From the IMG/VR virus record IMGVR_UViG_2526164662_000021, positions 32,574 to 96,573 of that record: 64,000 nt of DNA. One strand, 5' to 3'. The notes beneath the pieces are model-generated. The model was not told the origin of the DNA and did not search any database. It saw nothing but the letters and a program-made list of their open reading frames with translations. The stretch comes from a virus (taxonomy: Duplodnaviria; Heunggongvirae; Uroviricota; Caudoviricetes). How positions within the stretch are numbered: the first letter of the stretch is position 1; each line of letters begins with the position of its first letter. Positions 10,963 to 61,050 of the stretch are shown one piece after another. The translations under genes and the position numbers were made by a program.

Positions 10963-11134
10963 GTATTTTTAAGTCACGAATGCTATCTTTTCGCATCATA
11001 TTGACCTTTTAATCGTTCAGGCTTATAGTTCCGCCGTCGTAGCAAATTCTGCGACCGGGTTTAGCAGCCTGAATGATTGTGCGGACAGCCGCAGATATCC
11101 GATATTGCGGTATTTTTGTGTCCGTAAAACCGCG

Positions 11135-11215
11135 TTACGCCCAAATTATGGTGGGGCGTGATGGGGAGGCTTCGGCCTGCTGGTTTCACAATCGCCAGTC
11201 TGCTAACCCCGTCAC
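11135..11215 (+). ncRNA. c4: c4-like antisense RNA (approximate bounds)
   Basis: Segment CACAATCG...CTGCTAACC is complementary to two repeated target pairs GTTTAGCAGC/TGATTGTG at 11059-11081 and 11228-11266, the second covering the icd ribosome-binding region. Confidence 0.45.
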
Positions 11216-11276
11216 GTCCTGCCACCTGTTTAGCAGCGGGTAGCAGGTTGTTAAACCTGATTGTGAGGCCGTAACT

Positions 11277-29928: not shown

Positions 29929-30826
29929 GCACTGGAAAAACATTACTATTTATAAACTTTCTCGTGAGGCGGATCTGACCGACTTAGAAGATAAAAAGAA
30001 AATGATCCTTTTCACGCCATGCGGTAGTCAGGATATGGCCAAGTTCGGTTTTGTATCTCCATTTGGTGATAATTCCGAAGTTATCGCTATGCATGGAAAT
30101 GGTTTTATCCTTGTTGAAGCAAAGCGCGAAACAAAAATTCTTCCCCCGCCGGTTATCCAGCGAGCTATTCAAGAAAAAATTGAAAAACTTGAGCAAGAAC
30201 AAGCGCGTAAACTGAAGAAAACAGAGAAGGACTCCCTGAAAGACGAAGTTCTGCATTCTCTTCTGCCACGGGCTTTTTCAAAGTTTTCTGTTATCCAGGC
30301 GATCTACGACGGTTCAACTAAACGTATCTATATCAATGCCAGCGCGCGGCAGGCAGAGGATATGCTCGCGCTTATGCGTAAGTCTCTGGGTTCTCTTCCT
30401 GTTGTTCCCCTGAGTGTTGAAAATCCCATTGAATTAACGCTGACCGACTGGGTACGTGATGGTAGTGCTCCACAGGGATTTCAAATGGGGGATGCGGCAG
30501 AACTTAAGGCAGTGCTTGAGGATGGCGGTATTGCCCGAGTGAAAAAGCAGGATTTGGGAAGCGATGAAATTTCCACACACCTGGAAGCTGGCAAGCTCGT
30601 CACTAAGTTGGCACTCGACTGGCAGAACCGCATTAAATTTACACTGGACCATAACTTCAGCCTTACCAGCGTCAAATTTGCGGATGAATTGCTTGATCAG
30701 AACTCTGATATTGATAGTGAAGATGTAGCGCAGCGACTGGACGCAGATTTCTTCCTGTTGACCAGTGAAATTTCGTGCCTGGTTGATGCTCTGGTAAATG
30801 CCCTTGGTGGAGAGGCTAAGCAGTGA
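29921..30826 (+). CDS. hrdC: recombination-associated protein RdgC homolog
   Basis: Translation from ATG 29921 ([16 protein letters not shown]...[17 protein letters not shown]...LPRAFSKF...GGEAKQ) matches the RdgC family along its full length. Confidence 0.85.
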
Positions 30827-33087
30827 AAGAGCTGTGCTATGGATCTGTTTGCAGTGGAATTGAAGCCGCGAGTATTGCCTGGGAACCGTTGGGTATGCGT
30901 CCGGCGTGGTTTGCTGAAATCGAGCCTTTTCCATCTGCCGTTCTTGCGCACCGCTGGCCCCATGTCGCCAACCTTGGCGACATGACAAAACTTGCCAAAA
31001 AAGTCCTGGCTGGGGAAATCGAATCCCCTGATGTGCTCGTCGGGGGAACACCTTGTCAGGCATTCAGTATCGCTGGATTACGTGGTGGGCTTGATGATGA
31101 GCGTGGCGCGCTAACTTTAAAGTATGTGGAGCTTGCAAATGCAATTGACGACAAACGGGCTGAGTCATTTCTCAAACCGACAGTTATCGTCTGGGAAAAT
31201 GTCCCAGGAGTCCTGTCATCGGCAGATAACGCCTTCGGATGTTTCCTTGCCGGATTGGCTGGAGAAGATGCGCCATTTGAACCAGGTGATCGACCTGAAT
31301 CAGGAAAAAGTAACGCGTTCTGGCGGTGGGATGGCAAAACCGGTTGCCATGCTCCAAAGTGGCCGCAGTGTGGTTGTATTTATGGACCGCAGCGAAAGGT
31401 GGCCTGGAGAATCCTTGATGCCCAATACTTCGGAGTGGCACAACGACGCCGACGCGTGTTTGTTGTCGCAAGTGCTCGAACAGACCTCGATCCCGCAACG
31501 GTACTTTTTGAGTTCGAAGGCGTGCGCCGGAATATTGCGCCGAGCCGAAAAAAGAAGGAAATCGCTTCCGCCATTATTGCAAATGGCGCTGCAATCAGTG
31601 GCGAAAGCCTAAATCCATGCCTACACGCTGACATGCCACCCGGTATGAAATCGACGAAAGCCGTAAACGCTTTCAGGATGGCAGCATTTGGGGAATATAT
31701 TGACGATGAAACCGCATCGACAGTAAAGGCAAGAGATTTTAAAGATGCCACTGACCTTGCCGTTTTTAGCAGCACAGGAGCAGGTTTTTGGTCAGAAGGG
31801 CATGGTACATTGCGGGCACGTGAGCAAGAAAGCCATGAGCATCTTGTTACATTGGCTTTTCCTGAGCGTATGAGCGGTACACAACATGCTGCAACTAAGA
31901 ATACTTCACCATCTCTGATGGCTAAAAATCCAACAGCTGTTTGCTATGAAGTAAGAAACGCAGAAGTAGCTGTCCGCCGTCTTACCCCTGTCGAATGTGA
32001 AAGGCTGCAAGGTTTTCCTGATGGGCATACGTTGATCCCGACGGAAAAGCGTAAAAAAGTTAATTCAGATGAACTGGCATATCTTCGCAATCACTATCCA
32101 GATTTAAGCGAAGAAGAGGCCGCGATGCTTGCAGCTGACGGACCGCGTTACAAAGCGATCGGCAATAGTATGGCAATACCAGTAATGCGCTGGATTGGCG
32201 ATCGGATTACTAAGGCCGTATGTCGGCAGAAAGAAGGAAGTGAAACAAAAGAGCGAAAAGTTAAACCAGCGGCAGAATTCGAACGGTCCATATTCAAATG
32301 GGCTGGTGGAAAATTTGGTGTTCTGGAACAAATCTTTCGCTATTTGCCAGAAGGGAAGCGCCTGATCGAACCTTTTGTCGGTGGCGGAGCTGTCTTCACG
32401 AATGCCGGATACCAGGAAAATCTGCTAAATGATGTGAATGCTGACCTGATTAACTTTTACAAGACTCTGCAACGCGAGGCGCATTCACTTATCACACTGG
32501 CGCATCGGTTTTTCCAGGACTACAACACACAGGAAGGATACCTGGCAGTACGGAATGCGTTTAACAAACAAGTCTATGATGATTTACATCGCGCAGCGGC
32601 GTTTTTGTTCCTGAACCGACATTGTTTTAACGGATTGACGCGTTACAACCAGGCCGGTGAGTTCAATGTCGGTTATGGGAAGTATAAAACTCCGTATTTC
32701 CCATTACAGGAGATGGAAGCCTTCCTCGGTGCGGAAGGGCGTTCTGAGTTTGTATGTGGTGATTTTGCTGCGGTGATTGAAGCTGCCGGAGAAGGAGATG
32801 TCATCTTCTGTGATCCGCCGTATGAACCGCTTCCAAATACAGAGGGATTCACGAACTATTCCGGTCATGACTTTAAGTTTGAAGAGCAAAAACGCCTGGT
32901 GTCTCTGTTGACGGATGCTCATCGCCGAGGTGCAAAGGTTCTCATTACTAACAGTGGCGCGCCAAACATCAGAGAGCTTTATCATGACAATGGCTTCAGA
33001 GTGGAACCTCTTTTTGCCAGACGTTCTGTGTCTTGTAAGGGGGACACTCGAGGTGTTGCTCATGACGTCTTAGGCATATTGCTCTAA
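30823..33087 (+). CDS. dmt: bifunctional DNA methyltransferase (N-terminal C5-cytosine-like, C-terminal Dam-like N6-adenine), 754 aa
   Basis: N-half motifs [11 protein letters not shown] and ENVPG; C-half FVGGGAVF and CDPPY. Confidence 0.85.
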
Positions 33088-33094
33088 TAAATTT
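33078..33094 (+). promoter_or_regulatory. C1 operator (perfect consensus) with overlapping inverted partial copy at 33089-33105
   Basis: ATTGCTCTAATAAATTT; adjacent ATTTATTAGTGTAAT. Confidence 0.65.
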
Positions 33095-33474
33095 ATTAGT
33101 GTAATATCGTCTCAATGAATCGTGATTTATAGAGCGATTTAGCTGTTAGCCGCGACAGGCGCGGCGGTAAGCATGGCTGGGCCTAGTCCTCCCAGACAAA
33201 CCACCGAGTTGCCAGGTTGACCATGCGCCTAAGTGGCAACGCCGAAGTGCGTTACGAGCTTCCAGTTTGCCCATCTTCGGGTGGGCGTTTTTTTCAGGGT
33301 TTTCGTCATGGTTAGCGACTTTGCGGCGGTTTAGAAACTGACCATTAAAGTAAATGCAAACGATGATCTGATGATGGTAGCGGCCTAAGAAGCCAGACGC
33401 CACGGGGTATGAGTCGTCCCCCGTCAAAAAATCGACCGCAGAGTGTCCCCGTCTGTGTATTAGGGAACGGGGAG

Positions 33475-33700
33475 GCACAACAGGTAAGGGCGCTGGTGTG
33501 ATTAACCAGATGAACGAGAAGGGGCCATCTGTTGGTCAGCGTCCTTTCCTGTTGCGTCTTCTTTTCAGCGTAACAGCGGTGCTTAACAGCACTTTGGGTA
33601 CAGTTCCACGAATTTACGGGTATATCCCGTCATGCTGAAAGCGCTAATCACGCTGGAAGCCAGGGTTATGCATCCCCTGTTACCGAATTGCAGCCAGGGC
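33475..33700 (+). ncRNA. candidate structured RNA in ORF-free region upstream of tRNA-Asn
   Basis: No convincing ORF over about 660 bp; multiple local stems (CTGGT/ACCAG, CAGATG/CATCTG, CAGCGT/ACGCTG, GTGCT/AGCAC); starts with the CAACAGGTAAG motif shared by the hairpin family. Confidence 0.3.
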
Positions 33701-33759
33701 GCGGTGCGCCGAAAAGCATACGGAGGTGGAAGCCCTCGCCGGAGACGTACCCGGCAAGT

Positions 33760-33835
33760 GATGGTGTAGCTCAGCGGTTAGAGCGGTTGACTGTTAATCA
33801 ACGGGTCGATGGTTCAAATCCATCCACCATCGCCA
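33760..33835 (+). tRNA. tRNA-Asn (anticodon GTT)
   Basis: Hand-folded cloverleaf: acceptor GATGGTG/CACCATC, D-arm GCTC/GAGC, anticodon loop CTGTTAA, T-loop TTCAAAT, CCA end. Confidence 0.85.
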
Positions 33836-33837
33836 AT

Positions 33838-33913
33838 GCCGGTTTAGCTCAGTTGGTAGAGCGCCTGCCTTGTAAGCAGGATGTCAGCGGTTCGAGTCCG
33901 TTAACCGGCACCA
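33838..33913 (+). tRNA. tRNA-Thr (anticodon TGT)
   Basis: Acceptor GCCGGTT/AACCGGC, anticodon loop CTTGTAA, T-arm GGTTCGAGTCC, CCA end. Confidence 0.85.
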
Positions 33914-33916
33914 ACA

Positions 33917-34010
33917 CAACAGGTAAGGGTATTTTGCGACGTCGGAGATCGCCGTGCTTGGCAGAGGGTTCGAATCCCTACGAAGTACCCTTACCGTTGT
34001 GATGAAGTGC
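33917..34010 (+). repeat. hairpin-family element copy (tRNA-like T-arm GGTTCGAATCC inside a 10-bp stem)
   Basis: GGTAAGGGTA ... TACCCTTACC stem; ends with CCGTTGTGATGAAGTGC. Confidence 0.4.
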
Positions 34011-34138
34011 AGCTCTTAGAAGCAACCAGAAGATAAGCATCTGGCTTCACAACATAAACCGCAGGAACGACCAATAAACGGTAGTCCGTATGGAGAACAC
34101 CCCGTTGAGGAAGAGGCCTGGCCGGAACCGTAACCGGC

Positions 34139-34245
34139 ACTACAACGTTGAGAACACTGGCGTAACGGGGTCATATCCCAATCTACGAATAAATGTTGCG
34201 TTGCAGCGTGACAACCAGTGTTCTCAACGTTGTGGTGAATGCACA
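34139..34245 (+). repeat. hairpin-family element copy
   Basis: Perfect 16-bp stem ACGTTGAGAACACTGG / CCAGTGTTCTCAACGT enclosing CGTAACGGGGTCATATCCCAATCTAC; ends CGTTGTGGTGAATGC. Confidence 0.45.
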
Positions 34246-34350
34246 GGCTGATGTGCCGCAACTACAGTAGTGCGCGCTTTGCGGGGCTTGCTACAACCCT
34301 GTGTCGGAGTTCAGCACCGACCATCACAATTTATTTAGAAACTGTCACCC

Positions 34351-34764
34351 ATGAGTGCGAGAACGGTAATTATGCAGAAAGAGCAGTTTGTTATTTCTTT
34401 AGTGGTTAGCACCAGTTATCAGGTCGATAAAGTTTCGAAAGAAGATGCATCTGAAATTGATGTTGTAGATGTGTTCGGTAACGAACTCAAAATACCACTT
34501 CGTGAATTTAATGAAATAGCAGCTCCGTTGGGCAAAATTGACGGCTTGGAGGAATACCACAAGCGAATGATTATCGAACGTGCTCAGCTATGCCAGCGCA
34601 TAAATAAGCTTGTTCGATTCATTGGAACAGATAAATTCCTCACTATAGACCAGTGCAAGCAGTTGGATTTGGAAATTCAGCTCGGAAGCATGATTGATTA
34701 TCGAAAAGCTCTTGATGCTCGCTTGGTCCAATTAACCAAAAACTATCCGTCAGCAAGCAGCTAA
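34351..34764 (+). CDS. hypothetical protein, 137 aa, bracketed by two hairpin-family copies
   Basis: ORF track. Confidence 0.45.
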   Translation: MSARTVIMQKEQFVISLVVSTSYQVDKVSKEDASEIDVVDVFGNELKIPLREFNEIAAPLGKIDGLEEYHKRMIIERAQLCQRINKLVRFIGTDKFLTIDQCKQLDLEIQLGSMIDYRKALDARLVQLTKNYPSASS

Positions 34765-34813
34765 TTATAAATTTGGGGCGGATGGTTAGTCCGCCGTTAA
34801 CTCCATGAAACGG

Positions 34814-34905
34814 AGTACGCAACAGGTAAGAGCATTCTCCTGTAACGGGTTCATATCCCAATCTACAGGTCCACCAAGAATGCTCTTTCCGTTGCGGTGA
34901 ATGCG
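34814..34905 (+). repeat. hairpin-family element copy
   Basis: Stem GTAAGAGCATTCT / AGAATGCTCTT enclosing CTGTAACGGGTTCATATCCCAATCTAC; ends CCGTTGCGGTGAATGC; stem differs from the 34139 copy while loop is conserved. Confidence 0.45.
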
Positions 34906-35046
34906 GCTAAGCGCACGCGGGGAAATGGTTATATCAGTCCATTCATTTCTCCTTGTTTCCCCGTCCACGGTGGATAACCAGCCAAAGGACACCGGGAGGC
35001 ACCCAGCACCGCAGCTTTTTTATTCGTTAAATAATGGAGTGAGAGG

Positions 35047-35283
35047 ATGCAGAACAATCCGAACAAATGTCGAACGCTATGGGTGCGGTTATATATTTAT
35101 GCCGTCCTCTGTTTGATTGTGTCACTGGTTCTGTATGTTTGGCTTTTGCCAAATATGATCTCATCTAACAGCACAATACTTGTATTGTTGGGAGTCCTTC
35201 TTGCGCTCATTTACCCGGCTTTCGCAGTAGTCTTTTTTCGTGAAAAAACCAGGAAATTAATTAATGAAAAAAACGTTGATTAG
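35047..35283 (+). CDS. small two-TM membrane protein, 78 aa
   Basis: Two hydrophobic segments. Confidence 0.45.
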   Translation: MQNNPNKCRTLWVRLYIYAVLCLIVSLVLYVWLLPNMISSNSTILVLLGVLLALIYPAFAVVFFREKTRKLINEKNVD

Positions 35284-36091
35284 TGCAGCGATTATTTTGG
35301 GTTCTTTATGCCTGACCGGATGCGATCGGGTAGAGCCAGGTAACGTAGGGATCAAAGTAAATAAGCTGGGGGATGATAAAGGTATCGGTGAAGTAGTTGG
35401 CGTTGGTCGCTACTGGACAGGCTTGAATACTGAAGTTTATATCTTCCCGACCTTTAAGCAAATGAAGACATACGATGAGCCGTTCAGCTTCCAGATGAGC
35501 GACGGAACAACCATTGGTTACCACATCGGCGTAGCCTACAAGGTTGATCCAGCAAAAGTCACAACGGTATTTCAGACCTATCGCAAAGGTGTAGATGATA
35601 TTACTGATACCGATCTACGCCAGAAGGTTGCAGATGCTCTGAACCGGTTAGCCAGCAAAATGACCACCGACAAATTTATCGACGGTGGCAAATCTGAATT
35701 GCTTGATGCAGCCCTTAAAGACATTCAGGAAGAAATGACGCCAATCGGCATTCAGGTGATGAGCCTCTCTTATGTAGGTAAGCCAGAATACCCGCCAACA
35801 GTTATTGACAGTATTAACGCCAAAGTCACGGCAAACCAAAAAACCCTGCAACGCGAGCAAGAGGTCAAACAACGTGAAGCAGAGGCCAACATGCTGCGCG
35901 CGGAAGCTGCCGGACAGGCTGATGCTATTCGCACAAAAGCCCAGGCCGAAGCTGATGCCATTCGTTTACGTGGTGAAGCTCTGCGCCAGAACCCCGGTGT
36001 TATGGAGTTGGAAGCGATCAACAAATGGAACGGTACATTACCGCAGTATATGACCAGTAATGCCGCTGTTCCGTTTGTTCCGGTGAAATAA
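35264..36091 (+). CDS. lipoprotein with SPFH/band-7-like domain (Plp-like), 275 aa
   Basis: Lipobox LCLTGC after signal peptide. Confidence 0.65.
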   Translation: MKKTLISAAIILGSLCLTGCDRVEPGNVGIKVNKLGDDKGIGEVVGVGRYWTGLNTEVYIFPTFKQMKTYDEPFSFQMSDGTTIGYHIGVAYKVDPAKVTTVFQTYRKGVDDITDTDLRQKVADALNRLASKMTTDKFIDGGKSELLDAALKDIQEEMTPIGIQVMSLSYVGKPEYPPTVIDSINAKVTANQKTLQREQEVKQREAEANMLRAEAAGQADAIRTKAQAEADAIRLRGEALRQNPGVMELEAINKWNGTLPQYMTSNAAVPFVPVK

Positions 36092-36118
36092 AAGCGTAAG
36101 CAAAATTGGCAGTAATCC

Positions 36119-36194
36119 GGCCCTTTAGCTCAGTGGTTAGAGCTGGCGACTCATAATCGCACGGTCACCGGTTCAAGTCCGGTAGGGGCCACCA
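36119..36194 (+). tRNA. tRNA with anticodon CAT (Ile2 or Met)
   Basis: Acceptor GGCCCTT/AGGGGCC, D-arm GCTC/GAGC, anticodon loop CTCATAA, T-arm ACCGGTTCAAGTCCGGT, CCA end. Confidence 0.8.
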
Positions 36195-36474
36195 TATTTG
36201 GTTGTAACACGGCGTCTGGCACATGCGTCGTTAGCGGTCTGGTGACGTTAAAAGGGGGGAACCTTGCCCCTAGCTCAGGCAACGAACCAGGTAGCCGGAA
36301 TGTGCAAGCCACCGTTTGTTGTTTCTCGGGTAAAGGGATTCACCATCCTGGCGATTCGGTGTGACAGCCGGGAAGAGTCCGGCGCATTAATCCTGATTTT
36401 CTGGTGATGACTCATATCGTTAGGAGTGATTTGAGTATGCCGATTATATCTGACATTCAGCACGCCTGGGTGGA

Positions 36475-37845
36475 GTGCTAATGTCTGCATCCCCTCTTGA
36501 ATCCATGCCAAATTCCCTTAGTGCAGAACAAGCTGTACTTGGTGGCTTAATGCTTGATAACTGCCGCTGGGATGAAGTTGCAGATCGTATAGTTGCTGAT
36601 GATTTTTATACCAGTGCTCATCGTGAAATTTTCAGTGAGATGGAGAGGTTATTAAGTCATGGCAAACCGATTGATTTGATAACACTTGCTGAAGCACTTG
36701 AACAGAACGGTAAATTAGAACGCGCCGGTGGTTTTGCGTACCTTGCGGAGATGTCAAAGAACACGCCCAGCGCGGCAAATATTTGTGCTTATGCGGATAT
36801 CGTTCGTGAACGCGCGGTTGTTCGTGAAATGATTTCCGTCGCAAATGAAATAGCCGAAGCTGGATATGCGCAGGATGGCAGGGGCAGCAATGAATTGCTG
36901 GATATGGCCGAGCGCCGCGTTTTTGAAATAGCTGAAAAACGACAAAAGAGCGGTAGTGGTCCAAAAGATATCGCCAGCATTCTCGATGCAACGGTATCTC
37001 GCATAGAAGAGTTGTTTCAGCGACCACATGATGGTGTAACGGGGCTTGATACGGGATTTACCGATCTCAATAAGAAGACGGCAGGGCTTCAGCCGTCCGA
37101 TCTCATCATTGTCGCCGCCCGCCCATCTATGGGGAAGACCACGTTTGCGATGAATCTCGTCGAAAATGCCGCAGTCCGTAACTATAAGCCCGTATTGGTT
37201 TTTAGCCTTGAGATGCCGAGCCACCAGCTGATGATGCGCTCACTGGCTTCTCTTGCACGCGTTGATCAGACTCGTATTCGAACAGGGCAACTTAACGACG
37301 AGGATTGGGCGCGGGTTTCTGGCGCAATGGGTATTCTGTTGGACAAGCAGAATATTTTTATTGATGACTCAAGCGCCCTGACGCCGACAGAGCTACGTTC
37401 CCGCGCTCGTCGTGTTTATAAAGAAAATGGTGGTTTGAGCATGATTATGATCGACTACCTGCAACTTATGAGCGTCCCCGAGCTGCAAGATAACCGAACG
37501 CTGGAAATTGCCGAGATTTCTCGCTCACTGAAGGCGTTGGCGAAGGAATTACAAGTACCGGTGGTGGCATTGTCACAACTTAATCGATCGCTTGAACAGC
37601 GTGCGGACAAACGACCGGTAAATTCAGATTTACGTGAATCAGGAGCAATTGAGCAGGACGCAGACCTGATCATGTTTCTGTATCGCGACGAAGTTTATCA
37701 CCCGGATAGCGAAATGAAGGGCATTGCCGAGGTAATTATCGGAAAGCAACGAAATGGCCCAATTGGCACGGTGAGATTGGCTTTTAACGGCCAATACTCA
37801 CGGTTTGATAACTATGCTGGTGCTGACTGGCAAGAGGATTATTAA
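36475..37845 (+). CDS. ban: replicative DNA helicase, DnaB family (Ban-like), 456 aa
   Basis: Walker A ARPSMGKTTFAMN; DnaB-like N- and C-terminal regions. Confidence 0.9.
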   Translation: MLMSASPLESMPNSLSAEQAVLGGLMLDNCRWDEVADRIVADDFYTSAHREIFSEMERLLSHGKPIDLITLAEALEQNGKLERAGGFAYLAEMSKNTPSAANICAYADIVRERAVVREMISVANEIAEAGYAQDGRGSNELLDMAERRVFEIAEKRQKSGSGPKDIASILDATVSRIEELFQRPHDGVTGLDTGFTDLNKKTAGLQPSDLIIVAARPSMGKTTFAMNLVENAAVRNYKPVLVFSLEMPSHQLMMRSLASLARVDQTRIRTGQLNDEDWARVSGAMGILLDKQNIFIDDSSALTPTELRSRARRVYKENGGLSMIMIDYLQLMSVPELQDNRTLEIAEISRSLKALAKELQVPVVALSQLNRSLEQRADKRPVNSDLRESGAIEQDADLIMFLYRDEVYHPDSEMKGIAEVIIGKQRNGPIGTVRLAFNGQYSRFDNYAGADWQEDY

Positions 37846-60733: not shown

Positions 60734-60974
60734 GTTTTTTGACTGCCGATGTTACATTGAACCTGACCTCTTGCGCCTTGAGGCATTTTCGGTTTATGCT
60801 TATCAGGCACCTCATTAAAACGGGTGCCGGGATTGGAACCCCGGATAATGTCAAAGGCGACACAGACGCCAAAAGCGTCTTTTTTTGTGTCATGCCATCG
60901 CACGGCCATACGTAGCGTTTAGCTCAGAGATCAATGGTAGTGCTGGCTGGGCTGCCGAAAGGCAGGCCGGTTCC

Positions 60975-61050
60975 CTTTGACGCCGGTAGTTCCAACCCAG
61001 TCAGTGCTACCGCCATTGAGATTGGAACCTCACGCGGTAGCTCCTTAACT
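60975..61050 (+). ncRNA. second c4-like antisense RNA candidate (approximate)
   Basis: GTTCCAACCC and CAGTGCTACCGCC (60987-61012) are complementary to ATTGGAACC and GCGGTAGC in the leader and RBS region of the downstream icd-like gene. Confidence 0.3.

Follow-up and report, generated by a model that had tools for sequence, protein, structure and literature searches.

A Sequestin-domain gene between two hairpins of a tRNA and small-RNA array in a P1-like phage-plasmid

Between the genes dmt and ban of a P1-like phage-plasmid, a short open reading frame (ORF) stands between two long imperfect hairpins, and this arrangement raises the question of whether gene and hairpins move as one unit or whether the gene entered an array of structures that was already there. 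The stretch analysed, referred to here as the window, comprises 64,000 nucleotides of IMG/VR virus record IMGVR_UViG_2526164662_000021 (positions 32,574 to 96,573). It can be assigned by sequence to the P1-like phage-plasmids (Punavirus): identity to P1-type records is 95-99% across 33700-36500, and the plasmid NZ_CP122822.1 (Escherichia coli ETEC1731) is 99.9% identical over the region of the finding. An earlier note on this DNA had read the hairpins in three ways, as recombination sites, as the ends of a mobilisable unit resembling a miniature inverted-repeat transposable element (MITE), or as processing sites. The two mobility readings fail, whereas processing sites gain indirect support. 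The joint explanation that we favour, and regard as probable, is a Sequestin moron inserted in a pre-existing array of non-coding RNAs and tRNAs that is punctuated by RNase III hairpins.

The gene and its insertion site

As first described, the ORF runs on the + strand from ATG 34351 to TAA 34762-34764 and encodes 137 aa, with hairpin B (34138-34237) on its left and hairpin C (34818-34896) on its right; the corresponding RefSeq protein, WP_001168441.1, starts at ATG 34372 and has 130 aa. The protein had seemed to carry no recognisable motif, but its residues 67-125 match profile positions 1-59 of 61 of the Pfam family PF21825 with 56.3 bits (E = 3e-15), well past the gathering score of 24.8. 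It also matches phrog_15270 over the full ORF length, and its homologues carry the precomputed Pfam label PF21825:Sequestin, so that the family of the ORF is established. Proteins of PF21825 are homo-oligomeric phage sponges that bind 3' cyclic ADP-ribose (3'cADPR) and cancel type I Thoeris; they usually have 60-80 aa and are often fused to Tad2 or Acb4 (bioRxiv 10.1101/2025.07.12.664507). According to the same study, 10 of 13 family members were active in assays, and activity depends on the E, Q and second R of a pocket formed by R8, E12, Q47 and R61 in SequestinA and by R7, E11, Q45 and R59 in SequestinB. The ORF product has R72, E76, Q110 and R124 (R65, E69, Q103 and R117 in the 130-aa numbering), which are invariant in all 6 homologues; their spacing, 4/34/14, is identical to that of SequestinB, an equivalence by spacing and not by residue-level alignment to tested proteins. 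AlphaFold2 models a C-terminal helical hairpin (helices 61-84 and 94-124, pLDDT, the predicted local distance difference test score, 80-88), and the N-terminal 60 aa are poorly modelled. A sequence search against PDB chains gave nothing, and Foldseek against the PDB returned generic helical hairpins, none at E <= 0.001. Given PF21825 membership and the conserved pocket residues, the C-terminal half most likely acts as a sponge that sequesters 3'cADPR and blunts type I Thoeris.

The N-terminal ~60 aa can be described as a conserved orphan domain. The ORF as a whole is under purifying selection (ratio of nonsynonymous to synonymous polymorphism, pN/pS, 0.36-0.50), which is strongest in these 60 residues (~0.05-0.13, with pN 0.007-0.025 against pS 0.13-0.20). 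Compared with 1.84 billion representative proteins, they match their own cluster only, apart from weak matches to proteins of 979-2569 aa that were judged spurious. The whole protein is rare and falls into five 90%-identity clusters. Among 50,697 phage records blastn gave no match to the ORF insert, and tblastn for relatives yielded distant Sequestin-domain matches only. The ORF can thus be classed as a new two-domain variant of a known anti-defence family, with the activity predicted.

Both flanking hairpins are strongly structured. The arms of hairpin B (34138-34160 and 34215-34237; 23 nt, 96% complementary) form a 23-bp stem beneath an apex with the sub-hairpin GTAACGGGGTCATATCCCAATCTAC, and the RNA folds at -55 kcal/mol (z = -7.8); hairpin C, CGCAACAGGTAAGAGCATTC...GAATGCTCTTTCCGTTGCG with the tail GTGAATGC at 34897-34904, folds at -37 kcal/mol (z = -4.9), and no shuffle folded as well as either. 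The common loop motif reported earlier is present: GTAACGGGKTCATATCCCAATCTAC at 34162-34186 and 34842-34866, 24 of 25 nt being identical, occurs exactly twice in the 64 kb, and none of 100 shuffles gave a match. Hairpin B is preceded by a 10-nt copy of the tRNA-Thr 3' end (TAACCGGCAC). On its 3' side follows a structured module (34238-34329) made of GAAUGC, a small hairpin GCACA-GGCUGA-UGUGC, a hairpin UCGG-AGUUCAGCA-CCGA and the end CAUCACAA, which is able to pair with UUGUGGUG of hairpin B. Two small hairpins, GGCGGA-TGGTTAG-TCCGCC and CTCC-ATGAAAC-GGAG, separate the ORF from hairpin C (34777-34815); the first has a loop unlike the P1 version and travels with the ORF.

Related elements, which the earlier note had named as the check, keep the hairpins and lack the gene. 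In P1 (NC_005856), 813R1 and RCS47 the flanks are collinear, 57 nt stand in place of window positions 34333-34790 (458 nt), and hairpins B and C are both there. The same holds for all but two of the 656 plasmid records matching the region, the carriers of the ORF being only NZ_CP122822.1 and Escherichia albertii pEA22_2, and every two-copy IMG/VR locus listed has the loop motifs at the ORF-less spacing of 279 nt, against 680 nt in the window. This insertion polymorphism is established. Its left junction (~34330) falls ~90 nt past hairpin B, immediately behind the ...CAUCACAA with which the module ends, and its right junction (~34790) ~27 nt upstream of hairpin C, both outside the stems; comparison of the junctions with ORF-less relatives revealed no duplicated hairpin, target-site duplication or associated recombinase. 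The hairpins thus appear to be older than the ORF at this locus and not its mobile ends.

The left junction, ...CAYYACAA followed by TTYATTTAGAAACTGTCA, is identical in the window and four other ORF loci whose flanking hairpins differ: a TerB-type backbone of E. albertii, the locus L108, which has another set of tRNAs and a Tad2-like gene as neighbour, and two short contigs, L352 and L353. The same structured module stands 5' of the ORF in five loci (the window, L104, L108, L352 and L353), and the Sequestin gene occupies the same junction on three different backbones. The ORF is therefore always between array units yet not tied to particular hairpins. In L108 (GCA_020366905.1), one hairpin and one STnc100-like module stand 3' of the Sequestin homologue and a Tad2-like gene (PF11195) lies at 3797-4372, and this neighbour makes the locus an anti-defence island in some relatives.

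Sites with one hairpin, which the earlier note had proposed to search for as empty sites, do occur but have another origin. In a few IMG/VR contigs they are hybrids of 5'-B and 3'-C joined at the shared 25-nt motif, or tRNA-Thr fused directly to hairpin C, that is, deletions by homologous recombination that destroy hairpins. Unit number also varies, 813R1 and RCS47 having an extra 174-nt unit of module and hairpin A' (L001/L002 808-980). Together with the hybrid and fusion forms, this variation shows that unequal recombination among hairpin units is frequent.

These comparisons bear directly on the possibility that ORF and hairpins form a mobile cassette moving as a block, with the hairpins as attC-like folded sites or as MITE or IS200/IS605-type ends. 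Such a cassette would fit bracketing structured repeats of integron-attC-like length (80-100 nt), a stem base AAC...GTT that recalls the attC core sites RYYYAAC and GTTRRRY, a locus that differs between relatives, and B/C hybrids, which imply that recombination is possible inside the hairpin elements. It is contradicted by the presence of both hairpins without the ORF in P1 and in nearly all matching plasmid records (all but 2 of 656), by junctions that lie outside the hairpins with no hairpin gained and no target duplicated, by other loci in which the ORF has different flanking hairpins, and by strand-specific G.U pairs that favour RNA. The 3' base reads GTTGYGR, not GTTRRRY, and all four true copies share a strand within a single 1.4-kb locus, none being dispersed; two further sites flagged elsewhere by a hairpin scan of the window are both without the family motif. 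Gain or loss together with one attC site and a junction at the GTT of GTTRRRY, which define an integron attC cassette, were not seen, nor were the dispersed copies, repeats at exact ends and target-site signature of a MITE or IS200-IS605 element. The cassette or mobility interpretation is unsupported; already largely refuted, it keeps only a very slight probability in our assessment. Under the explanation favoured here, the ORF would be an accessory gene (moron) dropped between two pre-existing array units, and it probably spread among P1-like elements by ordinary homologous recombination with the conserved RNA modules as homology arms.

A covarying hairpin family

The bracketing pair proved to be two of four same-strand copies of one family, the other two having been missed in the earlier note. 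Hairpin hp0 (33476-33556; CACAACAGGTAAGGGCGCTG...CAGCGTCCTTTCCTGTTGCG) lies 5' of tRNA-Asn and folds at -42.9 kcal/mol (z = -5.5). Hairpin A (33915-34001; -41.7 kcal/mol, z = -5.2) begins right after the CCA end of tRNA-Thr, contains a canonical T-arm, GGGTTCGAATCCC, in its apex and has a tail, ATGAAGTGC, extending to 34010. Its members can be written as CAYAAC(A)GGUAAGAGCAUUG-variable apex-CAGUGCUCUUUCCGUUGUG-GUGAAUGC. In the plan common to hp0, A, B, C and the extra copy of 813R1, the arms CAYAAC(A)GG.AAG... (5') and ...CTT.CCGTTGYG (3') enclose a variable apex and are followed by the tail GTGAATGC. The conserved basal stem has ~19 bp, in which the nucleotide at position 7 is bulged, position 10 is mismatched and position 18 forms a U.G wobble.

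With the 3' motif as probe, members were also retrieved outside the P1-like phages: in the T1-like Klebsiella phage BUCT610 (two copies and the same modules), in the T1-like E. coli phage Bas81, beside tRNA-Ser and tRNA-Arg, in lambdoid dicB operons and in >120 IMG/VR contigs. The apices of 73 distinct hairpins range from 25 to 95 nt. A 16-mer scan of 596 Gb of genomes gave mostly chance matches (~280 expected), and a real hairpin was present in 7 of the 120 loci listed, all from Enterobacterales wherever titles were shown.

Covariation was assessed on an alignment of the arms only (54 distinct sequences), in which the 5' arm was placed by sequence motif alone and not by pairing. In the 19-pair stem 91.9% of cells are paired, compared with 83.6% in shuffles and 38-59% with a slid partner; 12 of the 19 pairs change on both sides, there are 74 compensatory cells, and none of 500 shuffles reaches the observed values. 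U.G wobbles recur at two stem positions (in 33 and 11 sequences) and correspond to A.C mismatches on the opposite strand. The + strand also folds better in hairpin A (-41.7 against -35.7 kcal/mol), hairpin B (-55 against -46.3) and the copy of E. coli K-12 (-35.6 against -28.3), while hairpin C folds about equally on both strands. The wobbles and the lower + strand energies of A, B and the K-12 copy point to RNA of the + strand. A tRNA lies <=1.5 kb away at 20 of 120 family sites, in all 20 on the strand of the hairpin and in several cases abutting it. The hairpins are thus a genuine RNA-level structured family of enterobacterial phages, both their structure and their covariation being established.

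To our knowledge this family is uncatalogued. Rfam 15 scans, run with both gathering and permissive cut-offs on the window plus 14 related loci, returned no family that covers the hairpins, and a literature search for the motif strings found nothing. Several catalogued candidates were set aside. Microrna-precursor matches to the long stems in the Rfam scans are spurious. YrlA, a Y RNA-like molecule considered for its long stem and T-arm, is modelled as a permuted tRNA-like fold and matches only true tRNAs. ARAGORN gives only three true tRNAs, and the mascRNA match (14.9 bits, E = 5) lends no tRNA-like identity to the hairpins. Origin from tRNA pseudogenes may be entertained as history, but it leaves the conserved, covarying stem unexplained.

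Proposed processing of the array and other possible roles

Of the roles first suggested for the hairpins, that of processing sites is supported by the RNA-level covariation, by co-orientation with tRNAs and by a K-12 member that size arithmetic places at a mapped RNase III site of the dicBF transcript. This member lies in the Qin prophage between ydfC and dicF (L354 474-558; NC_000913.3 1649173-1649257) and reads CAUAAC-G-CG-A-AAGCGCA-U-GG ... CCGUGCGCUUCCGGUUGUG, with the same layout of bulge, mismatch and wobble; another family locus of the ydfC-dicF spacer type is L111 1218-1305. A 190-nt form of DicF, absent when rnc is mutated, is reported to have its 5' end at a site dependent on RNase III "between positions 813 and 814" (J Bacteriol 2023, PMC10448788). 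A distance of 190 nt from the 3' end of DicF (735) places the cut at ~L354 546, and counting 813 nt from a promoter-like site, TTGACC-N17-TAATCT, in the dicA-ydfA spacer places it at ~L354 549-551; both positions fall inside the 3' arm (539-558) of the K-12 hairpin. The 3' end of a 72-nt DicF is likewise reported as an RNase III end (PMC5069750). It falls at ~754 of L354, in the 5' strand of the long helix UUUGUGAUG/CAUCACAAA that closes the STnc100-like module after DicF, and the 3' strand of the same helix type, CAUCACAA, stands immediately 5' of the ORF in the window.

Because published RNase III ends fall, by this counting, in a family member and a module helix, the hairpins and module helices are most likely, by homology, RNase III processing and stability stems that punctuate a long tRNA-sRNA-mRNA transcript (sRNA, small RNA). 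Their stems of 19-23 bp (fold z -4.9 to -7.8) offer about two helical turns on the transcribed strand, as RNase III stems do, and the array units of the window are all on one strand. As in the early region of T7 and in dicBF of E. coli, cuts would divide the transcript into tRNAs, small RNAs and mRNAs; read-through would yield the ORF mRNA, which would be trimmed and insulated at either side.

Several points weigh against this explanation, some touching the array and others the gene. A promoter scan of 33000-36600 found no sigma-70 promoter, so that co-transcription is suggested by orientation only. For the P1-like copies, the assignment to RNase III combines homology with size arithmetic, in which the "813/814" numbering is assumed. 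A pure processing stem leaves apices that vary and yet are sometimes conserved unexplained (the 25-nt motif of B and C; T-arms in 8 of 73), and equally the apex type shared by hairpins of unrelated phages (L353 and BUCT610 hp1). Both candidate starts of the ORF have a weak Shine-Dalgarno region. Of the assayed Sequestins, 3 of 13 did not inhibit Thoeris, and the assayed set was without the N-terminal domain found here (bioRxiv 10.1101/2025.07.12.664507).

The structured modules that follow the hairpins open with GUGAAUGC and then a small hairpin with the loop GGCUGA, whose stem shows compensatory variants, and they close with a hairpin loop, AGAUCAGCA, complementary to the GGCUGA loop (GCUGAU/AUCAGC). 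The module 3' of hairpin C (34893-35025) has the closing helix UGCGGUG/CACCGCA, followed by a T-run, and aligns to positions 31-147 of the STnc100 model (RF02076). It scores 30.4 bits, below the gathering score of 47 that the orthologue of E. albertii reaches with 47.3 bits. The window module can therefore be placed, at the level of sequence, as a divergent relative of STnc100/PasD-type sRNAs and not as a scored member. Members of the prophage sRNA family STnc100 occur near morons, 75 nt 3' of stx2 (PMC12370729), and the family is related to PasD (bioRxiv 10.64898/2026.05.13.724894). A sub-threshold STnc100 match (34.4 bits) is also present in the DicF-dicB spacer of K-12. Cargo begins right after the closing helix CACCGCARC and differs by element, being tciA in P1, TerB in E. 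albertii and the 78-aa ORF78 with an SPFH gene in the window.

The apices and these neighbours suggest that the hairpins might instead be functional small RNAs, in which the stem is a display or processing scaffold, the apex is the payload and the bracketing of the ORF is incidental. The payload could be a base-pairing seed, or a mimic of tRNA or of the tRNA-like domain (TLD) of transfer-messenger RNA (tmRNA) that titrates host factors or defence nucleases directed at tRNAs. Covarying stems carry hypervariable apices, and T-arm-like motifs occur in 8 of 73 against 0.2 expected from shuffles, with canonical T-arms in hairpin A and in the E. albertii hairpin C. This is an enrichment and not a general property, as only ~11% of apices have one. 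One apex type is common to the P1-like contig L353 and hp1 of the T1-like BUCT610, the neighbouring modules belong with the Hfq-associated sRNA family STnc100/PasD, and a tmRNA-like tag template stands at the head of the operon. Contrary evidence comes from ARAGORN and the Rfam tRNA and YrlA models, which do not recognise the hairpins, from the lack of known targets and from hybrids that destroy both B and C and yet persist in natural isolates. We regard a payload role as unlikely, with some weight nonetheless.

The exchange of cargo at module ends raises a further possibility, that hairpin bases and modules act mainly as DNA linkers, homology islands for cargo exchange among unrelated phages, with RNA structure secondary. 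Cargo changes exactly at the ends of modules, the ORF starting after CAUCACAA and tciA, TerB or SPFH following CACCGCARC according to the element. P1-like, T1-like and other phages share stretches of ~25 nt at 100% identity, there are hybrid hairpins and fusions of tRNA-Thr to hairpin C, and the Sequestin gene has the same junction on three backbones. Homology arms, however, need no structure, yet 12 of 19 pairs have compensatory double changes and wobbles are conserved; moreover, linker activity is compatible with the processing explanation as a by-product, and so does not exclude it. A mainly DNA-level role seems to us distinctly unlikely. The payload-RNA and homology-arm roles are plausibly additions to RNase III processing rather than exclusive rivals of it.

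It is tempting to combine these elements into a broader model, which we put forward tentatively and with low confidence. The hairpins would be widespread RNase III-processed scaffold RNAs of enterobacterial phages, from which variable apices, some of them resembling tRNA or the tmRNA TLD, are released as small RNAs. Together with the tag template and the STnc100-type modules they would form a non-coding RNA operon that manipulates host translation, RNA quality control or tRNA-directed immunity and that serves as a landing pad for anti-defence genes, the orphan N-terminal domain being a possible second inhibitor.

The surrounding putative operon, and comparison with known systems

The locus can be described as a putative non-coding RNA and tRNA operon on the + strand between dmt (30823-33087) and ban, the DnaB-like helicase gene (36475). 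Its proposed order is a DicF-like region, the tmRNA-like tag module, hp0, tRNA-Asn (33760-33835), tRNA-Thr (33838-33913), hairpin A, hairpin B with its module, hairpin C with the STnc100-like sRNA, variable cargo genes and tRNA-Ile2, the tRNA(CAT) at 36119. The DicF-like region (33140-33290, so annotated in the P1 record) has an intrinsic terminator at 33265-33287 and a T-run at its end, and part of it is similar to a conserved stretch just 5' of DicF in lambdoid dicB operons. Past the STnc100-like module, the variable cargo begins at 35047 with the gene for ORF78, a 78-aa membrane protein (phrog_1130), which overlaps an SPFH/Band-7 lipoprotein gene (35047-36091); the pair stands in place of P1 tciABC, and Stx2 phages carry the same SPFH gene (~86% identity) under the annotation of a serine protease. 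The spacer between tRNA(CAT) and ban (36195-36470) has a conserved stretch, GGCAAC.AACCAGGTAGC.GGAATGTGCAAGCCCC...GATTCACCATCCTGGCGATTCGGTGTGACAGCCGGGAA, found also 3' of the L108 Sequestin homologue (L108 3420-3520), and may be another non-coding RNA module. Elsewhere in the window are two C4 antisense RNA loci, at 11023-11229 and 60807-61017, of which one has its a1/b1 targets (c4-a1b1) and the other isrK, a pair that is the known P1 immunity arrangement.

Upstream of the hairpins, 33283-33389 contains a tmRNA-like tag template. Its tag frame (33357-33389), GCA AAC GAT GAT CTG ATG ATG GTA GCG GCC TAA, reads ANDDLMMVAA*, compared with ANDENYALAA for the E. coli SsrA tag; the UAAAU that stands before it is also part of the Rfam tmRNA_permuted consensus (24.1 bits, against a gathering score of 47). 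Exactly 10 codons and TAA are kept in frame in BUCT610 (ANEEMYLAVA*), Bas81 (ANDDVVLMAA*) and other P1-like loci (ANDDLMMAAA*); besides the window, the template is present in L109 (~1095-1127), L110, L108 and L104, and in T1-like phages a consensus TTGACA-N17-TAGATT promoter lies ~85 nt upstream of it. ARAGORN detected no tmRNA. A 2014 census of phage tmRNAs listed no enterobacterial phage (PMC4131195).

In the P1 annotation, the equivalent of 33883-34332 holds the minus-strand genes plp and upl. As a coding alternative for this region they were rejected: the plp frame has four stop codons in the window, and the region is covered by covarying + strand RNA structures, for which reasons plp and upl are probably not real genes.

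These results assign a probable anti-Thoeris sponge to P1-like phage-plasmids, which are important resistance-gene vehicles in E. coli. The orphan N-terminal domain becomes a candidate new anti-defence module, since fusion to other sponges is frequent among Sequestin domains. The P1 stretch of about 1 kb annotated as plp/upl looks instead like a + strand structured-RNA array. The more novel outcomes are the hairpin family, its dicBF RNase III link and the tag-like module. The family, backed by covariation and absent from Rfam, spans P1-like, T1-like and lambdoid phages, is tied to a dicBF RNase III site mapped 35 years ago, and offers a testable model for the phage punctuation of tRNA-sRNA-moron transcripts; the conserved tmRNA-like tag template of these phages deserves a study of its own.

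Set beside known systems, the ORF product resembles the Sequestins (T4 Y16O, SequestinA and SequestinB; PF21825, formerly crAss001_48) in its hidden Markov model match, predicted helical hairpin, R/E/Q/R spacing and phage origin, and one relative of the ORF adjoins a Tad2-like sponge gene. Typical Sequestins have 60-80 aa and stand alone or fused to Tad2 or Acb4, whereas this one carries an N-terminal orphan domain of ~60 aa. With integron attC cassettes the locus has in common a promoterless ORF between imperfect hairpins of 80-100 nt, in which structure is kept more than sequence. It differs in that the hairpins exist without the ORF, the junctions are not at a hairpin core, the core is unlike GTTRRRY, no association with an integron integrase was seen, and strand-specific wobbles point to RNA.

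Hairpins in a tRNA operon, some with apical T-arms and with an ORF between them, also recall tRNA punctuation, as in mitochondrial mRNAs and MALAT1-mascRNA, and the YrlA Y RNAs. The hairpins, however, have no cloverleaf and no significant tRNA, mascRNA or YrlA match, and a long stem that is not tRNA-like defines them. STnc100, the relative of PasD, likewise stands at the boundaries of morons, 75 nt past stx2 and 5' of dicB, but the STnc100 model does not cover the hairpins, and the window module scores below the 47-bit threshold.

A further parallel is with the RNase III sites of phage T7 and of dicBF. The T7 early-region sites R1-R5 are processing hairpins of a polycistronic phage transcript, and T7 early mRNAs are trimmed at both ends. 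The T7 sites are without the large variable apex seen here (often 40-95 nt, sometimes tRNA-like), and the hairpin family occurs in arrays tied to tRNAs and STnc100-like modules, cleavage of the P1-like copies being predicted. What the three share is long stems of about two helical turns with conserved irregularities, placed between functional units (in the window, those of a presumed single transcript) and bracketing single genes, and the likeness to dicBF extends to the molecule itself, as hp0, A, B, C and the K-12 hairpin form one family by sequence and structure.

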